Source: a virus
Lineage: Duplodnaviria > Heunggongvirae > Uroviricota > Caudoviricetes
IMG/VR virus record: IMGVR_UViG_2529292726_000021
Length of the DNA: 42,272 nt
Strand: one strand, 5' to 3'
Each line of letters begins with the position of its first letter. Positions within the stretch are counted from its first letter, which is position 1. The notes under the pieces are model-generated. The model was not told the origin of the DNA. It saw only the letters and a list, made by a program, of their open reading frames with translations, and ran no database searches. The translations under genes and the position numbers were made by a program. Shown here in pieces: positions 1 to 21,615 of the stretch.

Positions 1-1149
1 AAAGATATCGTTTACTTCCACAGCCTGTTCTGGCCTGCCATGCTGGAAGGCAGCAACTTCCGCAAGCCGACCAACCTGTTTGTTCATGGCTATGTGACGG
101 TGAACGGCGCGAAGATGTCCAAGTCTCGCGGCACCTTTATTAAAGCCAGCACCTGGCTGAATCATTTTGACGCCGACAGCCTGCGTTACTACTACACTGC
201 GAAACTCTCTTCGCGCATTGATGATATCGATCTCAATCTGGAAGATTTCGTTCAGCGTGTGAATGCCGATATCGTTAACAAAGTGGTTAACCTGGCCTCC
301 CGTAATGCAGGCTTTATCAACAAGCGTTTTGACGGCGTGCTGGCAAGCGAACTGGCTGACCCGCAACTGTACAAAACCTTTACTGATGCCGCTGAAGTGA
401 TTGGCGAAGCATGGGAAAGCCGCGAATTTGGCAAAGCTATCCGTGAAATCATGGCACTGGCTGACCTGGCTAACCGCTATGTTGATGAACAGGCTCCGTG
501 GGTGGTGGCGAAGCAGGAAGGACGCGATGCCGATCTGCAGGCGATTTGCTCTATGGGCATTAACCTGTTCCGCGTGCTGATGACGTACCTGAAACCGGTA
601 CTGCCGAAACTGACTGAACGTGCAGAAGCATTCCTGAATACAGAACTGACCTGGGATGGTATCCAGCAACCGCTGCTGGGCCATAAAGTGAATCCGTTCA
701 AGGCACTGTATAACCGTATCGATATGAAACAGGTGGAAGCACTGGTGGAAGCATCCAAAGAAGAAGTGAAAGCCACAGCTGCACCGGTAACTGGCCCACT
801 GGCTGACGACCCGATTCAGGAAACCATCACCTTTGACGACTTCGCCAAAGTTGACCTGCGTGTGGCGCTGATTGAAAACGCGGAGTTTGTCGAAGGTTCT
901 GACAAACTGCTGCGCCTGACGCTGGATCTCGGTGGTGAAAAACGTAATGTCTTCTCAGGCATTCGTTCCGCTTATCCAGATCCACAGGCACTGATTGGTC
1001 GTCACACCATTATGGTGGCTAACCTGGCACCGCGTAAAATGCGCTTCGGTATCTCCGAAGGCATGGTGATGGCTGCTGGCCCTGGCGGAAAAGATATCTT
1101 CCTGTTAAGCCCGGATGCTGGTGCTAAACCAGGCCACCAGGTTAAGTAA
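1..1149 (+). CDS. metG: methionyl-tRNA synthetase, C-terminal part (5' end outside window)
   Basis: Frame open from position 1 to TAA at 1147-1149; translation (KMSKSRGTF ... AKPGHQVK) recognised as enterobacterial MetG C-terminal region. Confidence 0.95.
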
Positions 1150-1655: not shown

Positions 1656-2390
1656 ATGAAAAAGTTGAAAAGTTTAGAAATCCCTGGGACTGGTTATAAA
1701 TTCTTTATGGACAACGCGGAGTGTGCGCCTAACGCGTTGGAAAAAATACAAAGTCTTATCAACAGCCTTACTGAAGAAGCGAAAGAACTGAAGAGCGAGG
1801 CGACAAAGGACAATACAGCTAAAATCCAATGCTTAAATCTCGTTTCTTATTGTTTATATCAAGTGTCCAAAACACTGATTAAAGGCAATATCTATTACGA
1901 CGATGAAGACACCTCGACACCTGAAGAAAAAGATAGCGATGAAGAACTCTATGAAGATATCTCTACCAGTGCGGGTCACGCTGCCTTCGATGCTATGGGT
2001 GAATCGTCAGGCATCAGATCGTTTGTTGAACAGAACAATTCGACAATAATGATTGAGTACTGTGAACAAACAAGCTCCAAGGCCATACATGTTCTTCACG
2101 ATGTTGCTGCAGGGGTTCGCTGTGAGGCTGAAGCGGTCAGAAAGGATGTATTTGGTGCAGACAGTAATACCGTGAAAGCGTTCATCAACAGTGCTCTGCT
2201 AAATTCTTACTCAACCCTTATCGTCAATGCGGCACTATGCGCAAATTCAGGTGAAGAACACATTGTCATAACTGAAACCAAACATGAGCATCAACAGTCA
2301 CCAACCATAGAAGAGGTAACTGCATTGGCTATCAAACAGGCGAGTGAAATTAGTGATGAAATTCTCTCTCTGCTAAACAAAACTATGTAA
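1656..2390 (+). CDS. hypothetical acidic protein (244 aa)
   Basis: ATG with AAAGAA upstream; D/E-rich stretches such as YYDDEDTSTPEEKDSDEELYEDIS; no catalytic motif recognised. Confidence 0.6.
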   Translation: MKKLKSLEIPGTGYKFFMDNAECAPNALEKIQSLINSLTEEAKELKSEATKDNTAKIQCLNLVSYCLYQVSKTLIKGNIYYDDEDTSTPEEKDSDEELYEDISTSAGHAAFDAMGESSGIRSFVEQNNSTIMIEYCEQTSSKAIHVLHDVAAGVRCEAEAVRKDVFGADSNTVKAFINSALLNSYSTLIVNAALCANSGEEHIVITETKHEHQQSPTIEEVTALAIKQASEISDEILSLLNKTM

Positions 2391-2559
2391 AACATTGATA
2401 ATGGCGGTCACAATTTGATTCTTTTCTATAAGAATCCGTTGATCGCCACTACTCCCCTTCCATACCTGCAATCACATCCTTAAATATCAATAGGTTATAG
2501 TTATTTATACCAATAAGAAAACAACTGAATAACAGATCAACGAAACGTCAACGCTTTCA

Positions 2560-3340
2560 CCCGATTTGGTCTAAAAAATTGACGTTTTCACACATCACTT
2601 CTTATACCCGTAATTCTACGCAGCAGATAGCGCCACAGCGTCCAATTTTCACCACAGACGACCCAACACACTACCAACAAAAACACACGCTCAAAATCGC
2701 TCCCGTTGCGTTACATAACCATATAAACAACTTATTTTCAGGCATAACAAAACAACTAAATAACACACATGCCATTCCCAAAAACAACCAACCTCTTTAT
2801 GGCAGGCTACCGAAAAGACCCACCTCTTCTCCCCAGGCTACCGGACAACCAACCTAACTTTCACAGGCAATCCGAAAACATTCATACGCGCGATACCCAC
2901 GACACGCCATTCCCCAAACAGCGAAGAAACACCAGAATCACTGAAACCCCAACGAAGCCTGTAACCGCAAGGATTCTCTCAATCCCAAAAGACACGAAAC
3001 ATAACAATCACGGGAAACGCCATTACCCAATACACGAATAACTACAAAAGCCTTTCACACACTCCAGACAAACAACTCAAACACAATAACGAAAGGAATC
3101 GCCCACCTGCCATTACTCCATACACGGAGAAGAACAATCACCAAAACGACGAGAACACCCCATAGAAGAACCACCGCAAAACGAACGAAACCACATACAC
3201 CGACAGAGAAAACAACACACCCAATTCACCAACAGAAATAGTCGCCGTATAGAACGTTCTGGAAGGAGTGAGCATTAACGCCTATAGAGAGGTTGAGACA
3301 GATAAAACACAACATGTATAGCGAAGAAGCCAGGTATGTA
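2560..3340 (+). other. A+C-rich, G/T-poor strand-asymmetric tract; candidate non-coding transcript or protein-binding region
   Basis: Sampled 60-nt lines are about 80% A+C on the plus strand; degenerate repeats GCCATT(C/A)CCCAA at about 2772, 2908, 3020, 3110; half copy of the early motif (AAGAAAACAAC, 2515-2525) just upstream. Confidence 0.35.
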
Positions 3341-3353
3341 TAAGTGGGGAGGG

Positions 3354-3378
3354 AAGGAGGGGTGTCGCCTCCTTTTTC
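3354..3378 (+). terminator. candidate terminator hairpin at end of the A+C tract
   Basis: AAGGAGG-ggtgtcg-CCTCCTT followed by a T run; preceded by G-run GGGGAGGGAAGGAGGGG. Confidence 0.4.
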
Positions 3379-3440
3379 GTATTTATTCAACTCCTGATTT
3401 TATCCCCCCGTAACACCCCTACGGTCAGCCTTCGGTCCAT

Positions 3441-3580
3441 ACAGGGAAAAGGTTGCATCCCGCTACAGAAACGGCTGGGTTGCCTTCGGGGAACGGCTGG
3501 AGGTTTTCAGGGAAACGGTCGAGTTGCCTGTGTGGATTTCGGGAAAAGGCTCGATGCCGGTTCAGGAACGGTGGCGTACC
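3441..3580. repeat. iteron-like direct repeat array 1 (six ~21-23 bp imperfect units)
   Basis: Units GGGAAAAGGTTG, AGAAACGGCTGG, GGGGAACGGCTGG, GGGAAACGGTCG, GGGAAAAGGCTCG, GGAACGGTGGCG spaced about two helical turns apart. Confidence 0.6.
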
Positions 3581-3888
3581 GGTATAGCGAGAGGGAGAGT
3601 TGCGGCTACCCACCTGTAATGTGCGGGAAGAAGAGAGGCGCTCACGTGCAGGCGGACTTGCTTACCGCTGGATTCCCTCTGAATGCCAGCTACAGCGTAA
3701 TTGTGCCAGACAGCCAACGGGTCACAATCGATTTCAGTAGGTTTTCGGGGAGAGGATTATTCTGCCCCCCAGCCACTTTCGGCCACTAAATCAGAATAAT
3801 GTAAAAAGTGTACTCGGTACTGAACCTGAAAACTCACTGCCAAAACCACATTCACCGGAATAAAATCCTTTTTCGCCTGTGTGTTATT

Positions 3889-3927
3889 GCGATAATAACA
3901 CCATCAAGAAAACATGTTGTTTAAGGA
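3889..3927 (+). promoter_or_regulatory. early promoter/leader module, copy
   Basis: GCGATAATAACACCATC followed by AAGAAAACAtgTTGTTTAAGGA; ATG at 3935. Confidence 0.5.
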
Positions 3928-5296: not shown

Positions 5297-5359
5297 TAAC
5301 AATTTGTTTTCTACCTTATCTACACTGCGATAATTACAACAACAAGAAAACAAGAGGAA
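5297..5359 (+). promoter_or_regulatory. early promoter/leader module, copy
   Basis: ATAACAAtTTGTTTTCTACC (5297-5315), GATAAT (5329-5334), AAGAAAACAAGAGG (5345-5358); ATG 5365. Confidence 0.5.
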
Positions 5360-6030: not shown

Positions 6031-6090
6031 TTGACGCCTTATTCGTACAACGATAATTAACACCAACAAGAAAACAATTTGTTATTTACG
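6031..6090 (+). promoter_or_regulatory. early promoter/leader module, copy with sigma70-like -35
   Basis: TTGACG (6031-6036), 17 bp, TAATTA within CGATAATTAACACCAAC, then AAGAAAACAAtTTGTTATTTACG (6068-6090); ATG 6105. Confidence 0.55.
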
Positions 6091-17849: not shown

Positions 17850-19105
17850 TGGCAATCCCGTCCTCGCTCAGTCTTGTGCAACTGCATTCTGGACAGATGA
17901 AAGTCTTCCAGTCTCCGCATCGATTTAAAGTTGTTTGTGCTGGTCGACGCTGGGGAAAATCCCGGTTGTCGATCTCCACTATTATTCGTGCGGCGGCAAA
18001 GGAAAAAAAGCAAAGGGTCTGGTATGTCGCTCCTACTTACCAGATGGCTCGCCAGATTTTGTGGGACGATCTACAGGAAGTTCTGCCTCGTAAGTGGGTT
18101 AGGAAAAAGAACGACACCACGATGACAATCGTGTTGAAGAACGGTTCGGAGATCGCCCTCAAAGGTGCTGATAAGCCTGACACTCTGCGCGGCGTAGCGT
18201 TGCATTTTGTAGTGCTTGATGAATTTCAGGATATGAAGGCTGACACCTGGTACAAGGTGTTACGACCTACTCTTTCATCGACACGCGGCGGTGCACTGAT
18301 CATTGGTACGCCAAAAGGCTTCTCGGAATTTCACAAACTGTGGACTATAGGCCAGAACGTAGAGCTGCAAAGAAAGGGACAGTGGAAGAGCTGGCAGTTT
18401 GTAACTGCCGATTCTCCGTTTGTGCCTACGGCGGAAATTGAAGCTGCTAAGAACGATATGGACCCGAAATCGTTCGCTCAGGAGTACCTGGCGAGCTTTG
18501 AGAACATGTCCGGGCGCGTTTACTACCCGTTCGATCGTAACGTGCATGTAAAACCGCTTCAGTTCAACCCTCGGTTGCCTATATGGGTAGGGCAGGACTT
18601 CAACATTGACCCGATGTCTTCAGTAATTTTGCAACCTCAGCCAAATGGTGAGCTATGGGCAATTGATGAATTGGTGCTCTTTTCCTCTAACACGGCAGAA
18701 GTTTGTGATGAGCTTGAGAGACGCTTCTGGCGCTGGAAATCACAGATAACGGTATTTCCAGATCCGGCAGGTGCTTATCGCCAACATGCTCGCGGGGAGT
18801 CTGACGTCGACATATTCAAAGAGAAGGGATTCTTACGTGTCGATTATTCGAAAAAGCCCCCGCCAATTGCGGATCGTGTTAATGCTGTTAACCGAATGCT
18901 GATGACCGCATCTGGAGATATCCGGCTGTATATCGATCCGAAGTGCAAGCATTTGATTGATTCACTGGAAAAAGTCATCTACAAGCCTGGAACACGAGAT
19001 ATGGATAAGACAGGTGGCATTGAGCATAGTGCAGACGCATTGGGCTATCCAGTACATCGTAGGTATCCAGTCAAAAACCGTGTTATTCTTGGTGGCTCTC
19101 GATAG
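17849..19105 (+). CDS. terminase large subunit
   Basis: Walker A-like GRRWGKS, Walker B VVLDEF, size 418 aa, position before portal. Confidence 0.85.
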   Translation: MAIPSSLSLVQLHSGQMKVFQSPHRFKVVCAGRRWGKSRLSISTIIRAAAKEKKQRVWYVAPTYQMARQILWDDLQEVLPRKWVRKKNDTTMTIVLKNGSEIALKGADKPDTLRGVALHFVVLDEFQDMKADTWYKVLRPTLSSTRGGALIIGTPKGFSEFHKLWTIGQNVELQRKGQWKSWQFVTADSPFVPTAEIEAAKNDMDPKSFAQEYLASFENMSGRVYYPFDRNVHVKPLQFNPRLPIWVGQDFNIDPMSSVILQPQPNGELWAIDELVLFSSNTAEVCDELERRFWRWKSQITVFPDPAGAYRQHARGESDVDIFKEKGFLRVDYSKKPPPIADRVNAVNRMLMTASGDIRLYIDPKCKHLIDSLEKVIYKPGTRDMDKTGGIEHSADALGYPVHRRYPVKNRVILGGSR

Positions 19106-19131
19106 GTAAGTGATTATCTAAGGTTATTCAA

Positions 19132-20706
19132 ATGGAATTGAACGACAAACAAATTAAGGATCTGGTGGCGCGACGCCACCCGGAATACGAAAAGAAAAAA
19201 GAACATTGGGACTTCCTCGCCAGCACTTACGCTGGCGGGCGTGGTTGGTTTACAGACAATATCTTTCGTTACTTTAAAGAGGGAGATCAGGAGTTTAAGG
19301 AGCGAGTTGAACGTGCTTATCGCTTCAACCACACTCGTGAGGTGGTAAACCTCATCAACAAATATCTCTTTAAAGAAGACATTCATAGAAATATCGAAGA
19401 GGCACCAGAGCAGATCCGCAATTTCTGGAAACGTGCGACTCGCCAGAATGCCTCTATTGACTCATTTATGGCCGCTATTGATTTGCAGTCGTCTATTTAC
19501 GGTCGCATATGGGTTGTTGTCGATAGCACGATGAGTGGTGATGTTGAGTCAGTAGCTGACGAGAAAAAGAAAGATGCTCGCGCCTACGCCTACTGGATTT
19601 CACCTCAGCAAATGCTGGATGTGGCATGGGACGACGACGGGAATATGTTGTGGGCGTTAATTGTGGAAGTCGCTCGTGATGACGCAGATCCTTTTACTTC
19701 TACAGGTCAGGAATCCCAACGTTATCGTCTGTGGACACAAAACGAGTGGTATCTGTTCCGTGAGGAAGTGAAGAAGGGCGCTGGTGGAGCAGGTCGCCGT
19801 CAGGCAAAAGTTATTTTAGAGGATAGCGGTGAGCATAATCTCGGCGTAGTTCCTGTGTTTCCTGTTGATTGTATTGGAGAAAGTGAATCACCGTATTTCA
19901 GCCCATCGTTGATCGATGATATCGCTTATCTTGATCGTGCGGTTGCAAACTATCTGTCAAACCTTGATGCCATTATTCAGGATCAGACATTTAGCCAGTT
20001 GGCTATACCAGTACAGTCGCTTTTACCTGGTGATGAAAACCACACTAAAGTGCTTGAAATGGGCACAAAGCGAGTCTTCACCTACGATTCTGAAGGTGGA
20101 AACCAGCCGTTTTATCTGTCACCAGACCCGAAACAAGCTCAGATGATCATCACTACGATTAAGACGGTGATTAACGAAATCTACCATTCAGTTGGTGTAG
20201 CTGGTGAGCGAACGAAGCAGGACAACGCACAGGGAATCGATAATTCATCTGGTGCCGCAAAAATGTATGACTTCCAGCGTGTAAATAGCTTGCTTGTCAC
20301 AAAAGCAGAGCGTCTGGAAAGGGCTGAACGCCAAATCATGCTACTGGTTGCGAAATGGATGGGGGTAGATCTGGACGAAGACCACTCTTTAATTGCGTAT
20401 CCAGAAAGTTTCGATATTCGTGGCCTCACAGATGAATTTTCTGTTGCCGAGAAACTATCATTACTTCAGGCACCGGACTCTGTACGTCGTCACCAGATGG
20501 AAATGCTTATTGAGAAGATTTTCCCGAACATTACTGAGGCGATGAAAAAGGAATTTGATAAAGATCTCTTGAATTTTCCGCCAAAAAATGATCTAAATAC
20601 CCTTGAAAATAAGTCAGTACTTACCTATGATCGTGGTGTGGCCCAAGAAAGCGGGCAAGATCAACCCCGAGGGAATGGGGACTCATCTACTCAAGAGAAC
20701 GAGTGA
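19132..20706 (+). CDS. portal protein (putative)
   Basis: 524 aa, directly downstream of the terminase large subunit and upstream of scaffold and capsid. Confidence 0.65.
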   Translation: MELNDKQIKDLVARRHPEYEKKKEHWDFLASTYAGGRGWFTDNIFRYFKEGDQEFKERVERAYRFNHTREVVNLINKYLFKEDIHRNIEEAPEQIRNFWKRATRQNASIDSFMAAIDLQSSIYGRIWVVVDSTMSGDVESVADEKKKDARAYAYWISPQQMLDVAWDDDGNMLWALIVEVARDDADPFTSTGQESQRYRLWTQNEWYLFREEVKKGAGGAGRRQAKVILEDSGEHNLGVVPVFPVDCIGESESPYFSPSLIDDIAYLDRAVANYLSNLDAIIQDQTFSQLAIPVQSLLPGDENHTKVLEMGTKRVFTYDSEGGNQPFYLSPDPKQAQMIITTIKTVINEIYHSVGVAGERTKQDNAQGIDNSSGAAKMYDFQRVNSLLVTKAERLERAERQIMLLVAKWMGVDLDEDHSLIAYPESFDIRGLTDEFSVAEKLSLLQAPDSVRRHQMEMLIEKIFPNITEAMKKEFDKDLLNFPPKNDLNTLENKSVLTYDRGVAQESGQDQPRGNGDSSTQENE

Positions 20707-20727
20707 TAAGTAACAAAGGGAATTTTT

Positions 20728-21615
20728 ATGAAACTGTGGCAAATGCTTTTGGCCCGTCGTGGTCTGATGGATGTTGCTGAAGCGCATGAGCGTGGGGGCG
20801 CTGGCGGTGTAGCTGCTGATAATGAGCAGAGTACACAAGATCCTGACAAACAGGGTGAACAAAAAGAGCAGCCGAAGGGCGATGACGAATACGCTGGCAT
20901 GACTCAGGAAGAGTTACTGGCCGAACTTCGTAAAACCAAGAAAGCTGGTGCTGAACTGCTGAAGGAGAACATGAAGCGCAAAGAGAAAGAGCGCACATTG
21001 GCCGATCAGCTTGCTCAGTACGGTGATATCGACCCGGCGCGTGCTCGCCAGCTTTTAGAAGCTGAACAGGCCGCAGAAAACGCACGTCGTGAGGCGGAGC
21101 AAGCTGAACTGGAGCGTCGTGGTGAGTTCGATGCTGTTAAAAAACAGATGATCGAAGCACACCAGGCAGAGCTGGCACAGCGTGACGAACGTTATGCAGC
21201 ACTGGAAAGTGAAAACGCATCACTGAAATCTCAATTAGTCGAGATGACCGTGGGCGCTTCCTTCAGTAACTCTCTCTTCCTACGTGACAAAGTTCTGATG
21301 ACTCCGGCAAAAGCCCGCGTGATCTACGGTTCTCATTTTGAAGTGGGTGAAGACGGTAGCGTAGTGGGTTATGACAAACCGGCAGGTCATAAAGAACGAG
21401 CTGTTCTGGTTGACGGTGAAGGTAAGCCGTTGCCGTTTGAATCCGCGATTGAACGCATTGTGCGGGCAGATCCGGAAGCTGACGCATTGATGCGTAGCGA
21501 AGCCAAGCATGGTGTAGGCTCACATTCCAAATCGACCTACACAATATCCCAACCGAAGAACAAGTCGACTATGGATAAGTTGGCCTCCGGTCTGGGGAAA
21601 ATTGGACTTAAGTAA
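20728..21615 (+). CDS. scaffolding protein (putative)
   Basis: Charged, coiled-coil-prone central region (AELLKENMKRKEKERTLADQLAQ ...); position between portal and capsid. Confidence 0.5.
   Translation: MKLWQMLLARRGLMDVAEAHERGGAGGVAADNEQSTQDPDKQGEQKEQPKGDDEYAGMTQEELLAELRKTKKAGAELLKENMKRKEKERTLADQLAQYGDIDPARARQLLEAEQAAENARREAEQAELERRGEFDAVKKQMIEAHQAELAQRDERYAALESENASLKSQLVEMTVGASFSNSLFLRDKVLMTPAKARVIYGSHFEVGEDGSVVGYDKPAGHKERAVLVDGEGKPLPFESAIERIVRADPEADALMRSEAKHGVGSHSKSTYTISQPKNKSTMDKLASGLGKIGLK

Follow-up and report, generated by a model that had tools for sequence, protein, structure and literature searches.

A conserved, A+C-rich non-coding tract in SSU5-type phage-plasmids: a possible Rho-dependent insulator

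We analysed a viral DNA sequence of 42,272 nucleotides (nt), IMG/VR record IMGVR_UViG_2529292726_000021 (hereafter the window), and within it a tract at positions 2560-3340 whose plus strand is rich in A and C. On the evidence of its sequence matches, the window is a phage-plasmid of the SSU5/pHCM2/Cyrano type. The tract is strongly biased in composition, is conserved in that bias across genera, lacks a conserved open reading frame (ORF), and lies where the RNA signal of a related lysogen drops to near the detection floor. Our tentative reading is that the tract, by loading Rho, acts in one direction as an insulator or attenuator that separates the cargo genes from early phage genes, and we put the probability of this reading at roughly 0.4.

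Positions 2560-3340 of the plus strand contain 39.3% A, 30.5% C, 14.1% G and 16.1% T. The original prediction, made from the sequence alone, had put the A+C content at about 80%. The enrichment is real, but the figure is too high: A+C amounts to 69.8% over the interval, and 80% is reached only in 3056-3234. In 700-nt windows of the whole sequence, A+C averages 50.3% with a standard deviation (SD) of 3.5%, and the tract peaks at 72.3%, about 6 SD away and the most extreme value found; the next-richest 300-nt windows have only 60% A+C. In a complete relative of 110 kb, the tract is the sole A+C outlier, at 7.8 SD.

The region 2400-3900 matches plasmids of about 110 kb in 243 of 5,426 complete E. 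coli genomes, with identities of up to 98.4%, and is present in 839 PLSDB plasmids. Phage Cyrano (pLF82) matches it at 96.8% identity, and the Cyrano lysogen locus is colinear at about 97%. Identities of 65-73% were found to Salmonella phage SSU5, S. Typhi pHCM2 and phage-plasmids of Klebsiella, Enterobacter and Citrobacter. We compared nine divergent copies of the surrounding gene-free gap, and then 26 representatives chosen from 62 viral contigs and the plasmid hits. All 26 have an A+C content of 63-74% and an excess of C over G of 11-21 points, over 626-691 nt and at 64-98% identity. The A+C bias is thus kept across at least five genera (including Salmonella, Klebsiella, Enterobacter and Citrobacter) at 65-73% identity. 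Positions occupied by A or C are slightly better conserved than those occupied by G or T. Exchanges between A and C are as common as transitions and 1.5-3 times as common as other transversions, an excess that selection on composition itself would be expected to produce. Close E. coli relatives differ at 8.6% of sites in the tract, versus 19% in the rest of the gap. These patterns in the alignments suggest purifying selection on the composition of one strand.

The tract lies inside a gene-free gap of about 1.5 kb (2391-3913), the largest non-coding stretch of the entire element. RefSeq/PGAP annotation is empty at the gap in more than 200 E. coli plasmids, and PGAP calls no gene here in any of the E. 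coli plasmid matches listed; at least 80% of the region is present in 213 plasmids. Open frames of 90-227 codons do occur in several frames, among them a 92-aa ORF at 2579-2857 and a 90-aa ORF at 2769-3041, and hypothetical proteins have been annotated here in two phage records (CYRAN_103 and SSU5_108). Long open frames are, however, expected in DNA poor in T and G, and the boundaries, frames and strands of these ORFs differ among the homologues; no conserved ORF was found in the tract, and the homologues disagree in the frame, strand and limits of their stop-free stretches. Indels between lineages, of 24, 11, 11, 3 and 12 nt, do not keep to multiples of three. Three-base periodicity is absent from the variable sites of the tract (p 0.18) and of the window's two ORFs (p 0.24 and 0.75), unlike those of three of four flanking genes, which have a third-position excess (p 0.02, 0.001 and 4e-6); the fourth has only five variable sites. 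The comparison of conservation with coding potential that had been proposed as a check therefore gave a conserved composition and no support for translation, with neither a conserved frame nor codon periodicity. We reject the tract as a coding region; that it encodes one or more proteins is extremely improbable.

The strand bias of the tract is of the kind associated with Rho-dependent termination. Nadiras et al. (2018, PMC6144790) found that all tested templates whose C>G bubble exceeded 78 bp in length or 700 %*bp in area were terminated by Rho in vitro. A skew analysis, another check proposed with the original prediction, gave a single uninterrupted C>G bubble on the sense strand of the tract, in windows starting at 2345-3216, with a length of 872 nt and an area of 15,758 %*bp. 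This area is 22 times the in vitro threshold and 2.8 times that of the next bubble in the window; the other large bubbles listed for the window all lie on the strand opposite long ORFs or annotated genes. The GC skew is -0.33 in 2401-2600. YC (14.4 vs 9.8%), AAC (6.2 vs 2.1%), ACA (6.6 vs 1.7%) and CAC (5.0 vs 1.1%) are enriched in the tract, and GG, GTG and GGT are depleted.

The sense RNA is predicted to be nearly devoid of structure. Its minimum free energy is -0.105 kcal/mol/nt with 75% of bases unpaired, versus -0.286 +/- 0.04 for 140 other segments (a difference of 4.5 SD), and it is the least structured 589-nt segment of the window, the opposite strand folding normally. A consensus fold of the 5' part of the tract reached only -3.95 kcal/mol and showed no covariation; compensatory pairing had no support in the 5' part, in a hairpin at the upstream boundary of the tract (Table 1), or at the 3' end. 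The claim that transcription of the tract would give a C-rich, G-poor, nearly unstructured RNA with the composition of a Rho site is borne out by the bubble and by these folding predictions. The tract thus combines a C>G bubble of at least about 78 nt, little structure together with richness in YC, and the absence of shielding by translation, as expected of Rho terminators.

Transcript data come from published RNA-seq of the Cyrano/LF82 lysogen (PMC9928086; 10 samples), and the values used here are those of its S1 Table. The libraries are probably strand-specific, because the authors report antisense transcripts. CYRAN_102, the gene upstream of the tract, has log2 values of 5.6-9.2 in the lysogen. 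CYRAN_103, which corresponds to window positions 2501-2857, has values of 2.3-4.3 and is at or near the detection floor in all ten samples. The RNA signal falls about 10-80-fold within some 110 nt at the upstream boundary of the tract. A scan for intrinsic terminators between the upstream stop codon and position 3351 found none, either in the window or in Cyrano, and the expressed, co-oriented upstream gene ends 12 nt before the boundary hairpin.

If the tract is a Rho-dependent insulator, an RNA polymerase moving rightward, having either read through from the cargo genes or started at a weak site in the gap, would make an RNA almost without G and U that would neither fold nor carry ribosomes. 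Rho would load on this C-rich RNA just past the boundary hairpin and along the tract and would then release the polymerase, after which exonucleases would shorten the freed RNA as far as the hairpin at 2402-2447. The outcome would be a one-way insulator or attenuator that silences the downstream phage genes in the plasmid (lysogenic) state. A Rho-dependent end trimmed to a protective stem would be expected to show just this order, a hairpin that lacks a U-run and then C-rich RNA without structure. Silencing of prophage genes by Rho is established, as is extensive 3' processing of the RNAs that Rho terminates (reviewed in PMC12360218). The original prediction had offered a Rho-dependent terminator as one possibility, to which the composition, the lack of folding and of translation, and the drop in RNA without an intrinsic terminator all fit; the transcription start that it had envisaged at 2515 is doubtful (see below).

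Lambda tR1 and the Rho-terminated leaders of rho, mgtA and corA are examples of Rho-dependent terminators and rut (Rho utilization) regions. Like them, the tract has a C>G bubble, many YC and few G-rich words, and an unstructured, untranslated RNA; RNA is lost downstream in the absence of an intrinsic terminator, and a stem-loop upstream could shield a trimmed 3' end. Compared with a rut site, the tract is about ten times longer, is conserved in sequence across genera, and contains a 27-nt motif and tandem 31-nt repeats. The role proposed here is one that Rho plays against prophages and horizontally acquired genes (Cardinale 2008; Menouni 2013; both as cited in PMC12360218): by ending stray transcription, it keeps phage genes silent in the lysogen. 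The known cases of such silencing act within or antisense to genes and in A/T-rich, H-NS-bound DNA, whereas the tract would be a dedicated, conserved, gene-sized, non-coding sequence encoded by the element itself.

The position of the tract is consistent with insulation. The gene order of the window is a plasmid-borne metG, small genes, a UvsW-like helicase gene, ParB-like genes, terminase and tail genes. Genes on both sides of the gap have the same sense strand as the A+C-rich strand. The gene upstream of the gap varies among relatives (a coiled-coil protein, a DUF1380 protein, a GIY-YIG protein, or a DUF262 protein on the other strand), and the gap and the genes downstream of it are kept among relatives whose upstream genes differ. 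We take the gap to be the border between cargo and a conserved phage module because the upstream side is variable and the gap and downstream side are conserved. On the downstream side, the first genes are small and form a conserved operon; their promoters carry operator-like palindromes, and we take these genes to be early ones. The proteins flanking the gap had no informative match in Pfam, PHROG or PDB, and for the protein downstream only close homologues were detected.

Several observations weigh against the insulator reading. The drop in RNA is equally expected if nothing transcribes the tract, as termination and lack of entry are not separable in these data, and both the agency of Rho at this locus and the purpose of insulation are inferred. 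A rut site needs about 80 nt, and Rho biology gives no reason for a length of about 600 nt. A promoter and operator of their own are predicted for the downstream genes, which do not depend on transcription through the tract. One Klebsiella relative has an upstream gene directed away from the tract, and the tract is unchanged there, so that read-through from cargo cannot be the sole selective force. Finally, the tract is confined to the enterobacterial SSU5 group: at loci anchored on the helicase gene in more distant relatives (Yersinia pMT1 and phage-plasmids of Acinetobacter and Aeromonas, the latter two with helicases 40-42% identical), no comparable tract was found, and it is therefore not a general requirement of such elements.

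The 27-nt motif is the most specific of these difficulties. It has the form GCCATTAC...GGAGAAGAAC, with a family consensus of approximately RMYGCCATTACYCMAWAYRCGGAGAASAAC, and is present in 3-6 copies per tract. The octamer GCCATTAC occurs 87 times in the 26 representative tracts, versus 0.3 times expected from composition (about 290-fold). The four degenerate repeats claimed by the original prediction were all found again, at spacings of 135, 113 and 90 nt (Table 1), and are not due to chance. The motif is not explained by composition and hence not by Rho alone; Rho requires no specific, near-invariant sequence in several over-represented copies. It points to a sequence-specific reader and may bind a factor that modulates termination. 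Such a reader fits a termination-modulating factor, a decoy RNA of the lytic phase, or a DNA-binding protein. The motifs of the gap are unique in the 110-kb plasmid, and a dispersed operator was rejected on that ground. A further possibility is a dedicated, gene-sized, structure-free RNA element whose 4-6 motif copies are read by a factor, acting either as a switchable Rho trap that couples the choice between lysogeny and lysis to host termination or as a lytic-phase decoy that titrates a host RNA-binding factor. We regard this possibility as unlikely.

In a related explanation, the tract would be the body of a long non-coding RNA (about 0.75-0.9 kb) that is transcribed chiefly upon induction and stops at the hairpin and T-run at 3351-3383. 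Its 4-6 single-stranded copies of the motif (GCCAUUAC...GGAGAAGAAC) could titrate an RNA-binding protein, the seed of a small RNA, or Rho itself, in the manner of CsrB, RsmZ or CrcZ. The same-sense orientation of a motif so over-represented and conserved across genera, the G- and U-poor scaffold predicted to be unstructured, the selection on the composition of one strand, the conserved promoter-like and operator-like sequences upstream, and the terminator-like end in this lineage all agree with it. RNA over 2501-2857 is nevertheless at the detection floor in the ten lysogen samples of the S1 Table, which, for the 5' half of the tract, contradicts abundance in the lysogen of the sponge or non-coding RNA that had also been envisaged. 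The scan found no credible sigma-70 promoter, the terminator is not conserved in SSU5-type relatives, and a C-rich RNA without protection would itself be terminated by Rho. Rfam searches gave no match at the gathering score and only chance-level matches at E<=10, and no covariation was seen. The likeness to CsrB/CsrC, RsmX/Y/Z and CrcZ lies in several copies of a short motif in a single-stranded context within an RNA of a few hundred nt; unlike those RNAs, the tract has a motif unrelated to GGA or AANAANAA, lacks an Rfam match and is not abundant in the lysogen. On balance, a titrating RNA seems unlikely. A sponge for GcvB or Hfq was considered for the richness in C and A, and by eye the C/A-rich words lie outside the conserved islands. 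A repeat RNA resembling type III antitoxins was rejected, the repeats being degenerate and no toxin gene adjacent. No tRNA or tmRNA was found.

The gap could instead act as duplex DNA, its three same-orientation repeat families (the 27-nt motif, the 31-nt repeat in three copies, and six GGGAAAMGG motifs) forming an array that binds a phage-plasmid protein, as a lytic origin or a regulatory or pairing platform; strand asymmetry would then have arisen incidentally as repeats were duplicated, or would help in priming or unwinding. The gap is the largest non-coding region of the plasmid, its motifs are conserved and its spacers variable, the element encodes its own replisome, RecA, UvsW-like helicase and RNase HI, and low RNA in the lysogen is compatible with a role at the DNA level. 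Like P1 oriR/incA, F RepFIB and lambda ori, the gap is a large non-coding region with repeats of about 20-30 bp that all point the same way. It is unlike iteron origins in its one-strand bias and in having neither an adjacent initiator gene nor a skew switch: the cumulative GC skew switches at RepB, the initiator, which is encoded 36 kb away and whose iterons TATGCTGTCAGCGGT are unrelated to the repeats of the gap. A RepB iteron or copy-control locus was also rejected. By eye, the alignment contains no conserved AT-rich unwinding element and no DnaA boxes, no formal scan having been run; the AT-rich stretch at 2450-2600 of this lineage is, also by eye, C-rich in SSU5-type relatives. Moreover, a duplex site needs no one-strand A+C bias over 600 bp, and the tolerance of exchanges between A and C points to a constraint on a single strand. 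A further objection, weak because the plasmid concerned uses RepA, is that a 52-kb derivative still replicates although IS100 interrupts its GGGAAAMGG array. We consider a DNA-level array only a minor possibility. A packaging site is unlikely because the terminase genes are about 11 kb away, and on reading the sequence we found no full match to Chi sites, to a P1-type parS (an octamer, ATCGCCAC, is shared) or to a sigma-54 promoter.

It is quite improbable that the tract has no function and is a relic of local duplications of an A+C-rich unit, hitch-hiking between two selected regulatory regions. Its internal repeats do show growth by local duplication, the indels listed above are tolerated between lineages, and the tract is absent from more distant phage-plasmids. 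The same composition is, however, kept in five or more genera despite their sequence divergence, the tract has half the variation of the remaining gap, and the copies of the motif hardly vary.

The tract belongs to a conserved control region of 1.5 kb, which had been overlooked in the original prediction, as had the membership of its repeats in the strongly conserved 27-nt motif. The features of this region are collected in Table 1.

Table 1. Sequence features in and around the gene-free gap (window coordinates)
Feature	Position	Strand	Remarks
Boundary hairpin	2402-2447	+	12 nt past upstream stop codon (2388-2390); outer stem GGCGGTCA/TGATCGCC, inner stem GATTCTT/AAGAATC; without U-run
C-rich, G-poor linker	2448-2512	+	For example CTACTCCCCTTCCATACC; CTTTCCCCACCCCTCCAACCTACCCCAGCCC in SSU5-type relatives; start of C>G bubble (windows from 2345)
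Half-operator module ATAAGAAAACAAC..AATAACAG-ATCAA	2513-2540	+	Conservation 0.96-0.97 in 26 representatives; no right half-site, no good -10
Promoter-like block GATTTGGTCTAAAAA-TTGACG-N17-TTATAC(C)	2563-2608	+	Invariant alignment columns; conserved island
Core A+C tract	2650-3238	+	Maximal-scoring segment; A 41.6, C 33.4, G 11.7, T 13.2%; A+C 75%; proposed Rho-loading/termination zone
Motif copy 1, GCCATT(A/C)C	2771-2797	+	3' half degenerate
Three tandem 31-nt repeats ACC(C/A)ACCTCTT-N5-CAGGCTACCG	2782-2873	+	Repeat family D1
Motif copy 2 (GCCATTCCCCAAACAGCGAAGAAACAC)	2906-2932	+	Repeat search, motif profile
Motif copy 3 (GCCATTACCCAATACACGAATAACTAC)	3019-3045	+	Repeat search, motif profile
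Motif copy 4 (GCCATTACTCCATACACGGAGAAGAAC)	3109-3135	+	Best consensus match; nearly invariant across genera; island 3104-3125
Two 31-nt copies AGAAGAAC..CAAAACGA..GAAAC	3128-3194	+	Repeat family D6; start-to-start spacing 36 nt
G-run GGGGAGGGAAGGAGGGG	3346-3362	+	Start of terminator-like end of tract
Hairpin GAAGGAGG-loop-CCTCCTT, then T-run	3351-3383	+	-18.5 kcal/mol, z -3.1
Six GGGAAAMGG motifs, one orientation	3444-3571		Some degenerate (CAGAAACGG, CAGGAACGG); spacings 22, 22, 22, 31, 22 nt
Perfect 21-bp palindrome GTGTTATT-GCGAT-AATAACAC	3881-3901		Overlaps -10 of extended -10 promoter-like site of next gene
Promoter/operator module (TGn)GATAAT-N9-AAGAAAACAA-n-TTGTTTT	1266-1300, 3888-3925, 5329-5355, 6053-6085		Precedes ORFs 1311, 3935, 5365, 6105

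The boundary hairpin folds at -19.1 kcal/mol (z -4.7) and has a sequence that occurs nowhere else in the 110-kb plasmid. All 26 representatives share the same outer stem; the inner stem has another sequence in SSU5 and still pairs (-17.4 kcal/mol, z -2.1, with 12 of 200 shuffles folding as well). It is a candidate for a protective 3' stem-loop or for a palindromic DNA site. A scan of genome contigs for the hairpin pattern gave chance matches only, in unrelated high-GC genomes. The linker that follows is the likely first entry site of Rho for read-through from upstream.

The sequence AAGAAAACAAC at 2515 is the left half of a palindrome found at four promoter-like sites of the window with good sigma-70-type -10 boxes. 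The half motif that had been noted at this position is therefore present, but a rightward start there is doubtful, as it has neither the right half nor a usable sigma-70 -10. In the nearby promoter-like block, the -10 lacks its final T and the block was not called by the sigma-70 scan; any promoter in it is weak or not of the sigma-70 type. The most conserved island of the tract, at 0.98, is CAGGCTACCGAAAAGA in the tandem 31-nt repeats.

At the downstream end, a G-run at 3344-3360 and a hairpin with a T-run had been reported; these elements are present, the coordinates of the G-run being off by 2 nt. Judged by its sequence, 3346-3383 is an intrinsic-terminator-like end of the tract in this lineage. 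The hairpin with its U-run is found in this lineage and in some Klebsiella, and in SSU5-type relatives the hairpin is weaker and the T-run missing. The GGGAAAMGG array beyond it looks like iterons or ANGGA-type protein sites; its motifs are conserved and its spacers variable across genera, and no consistent RNA fold was found between lineages. The 52-kb defective derivative (CP057431.1, 39774-41575) has lost all structural genes and kept the gap, with IS100 inside this array, from which it follows that the array is dispensable for RepA-driven plasmid maintenance.

The 21-bp palindrome near the end of the gap is unique in the window and in the 110-kb relative, and its half-sites AATAACAC/G recur at 2528 and 2759. 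Full promoter/operator modules were compared at 1281, 3906, 5344 and 6068, the copy at the end of the gap being an AAAACA-TG-TTGTTT palindrome before the next gene. A repressor probably binds the palindrome AAAACAAnTTGTTTT as its operator; in the predicted transcript this palindrome would span roughly +1 to +20. An upstream element, ACAATTTGTTTTCTACCTT, is shared at about 1233 and about 5300.

Some further observations concern the element as a whole. The metG gene (window 40-1149) encodes a full-length methionyl-tRNA synthetase and lies beside apbC and a gene for an S24 LexA-like peptidase; in the lysogen part of the S1 Table covered here, the peptidase gene is among the most expressed genes of Cyrano. 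More than 13 iterons TATGCTGTCAGCGGT flank the RepB gene (NZ_CP023851.1, 1070-1211 and 2303-2884). The cumulative GC skew decreases monotonically over the whole circle and has its two extremes at the RepB locus, which is consistent with unidirectional replication or with an almost uniform orientation of genes. Klebsiella IncFIB plasmids of 160-260 kb (NZ_CP029739.1, 5001-5448) contain only the first 440 nt or so of the gap, with the hairpin, the half-operator and the start of the tract, adjoining a DUF262 gene and a type I restriction-modification gene. These partial gaps are probably remnants of cointegrated phage-plasmids. In Yersinia pestis pMT1 (18141-21185), the helicase block is retained at 92.5% protein identity, the gap, metG and the small downstream genes are lost, and IS1541 is present at the junction.

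Phage-plasmids of the SSU5/pHCM2 type are widespread in clinical Enterobacteriaceae and carry resistance genes. They number hundreds in clinical E. coli, Klebsiella, Enterobacter and Salmonella Typhi, and a full-text literature search on these phage-plasmids found no paper describing the region analysed here. The search likewise turned up no data on Rho dependence of 3' ends or read-through (bicyclomycin, rho mutants or in vitro) for an SSU5-type element. The tract is an unusually clean natural example of selection for an RNA unable to fold. If our reading of it as a Rho-dependent insulator is correct, a mobile element recruits the terminator of its host to wall off the expression of its cargo from the lytic programme, and inhibition of Rho, by bicyclomycin or by Psu-like proteins, would be predicted to perturb the lysogeny of these elements.

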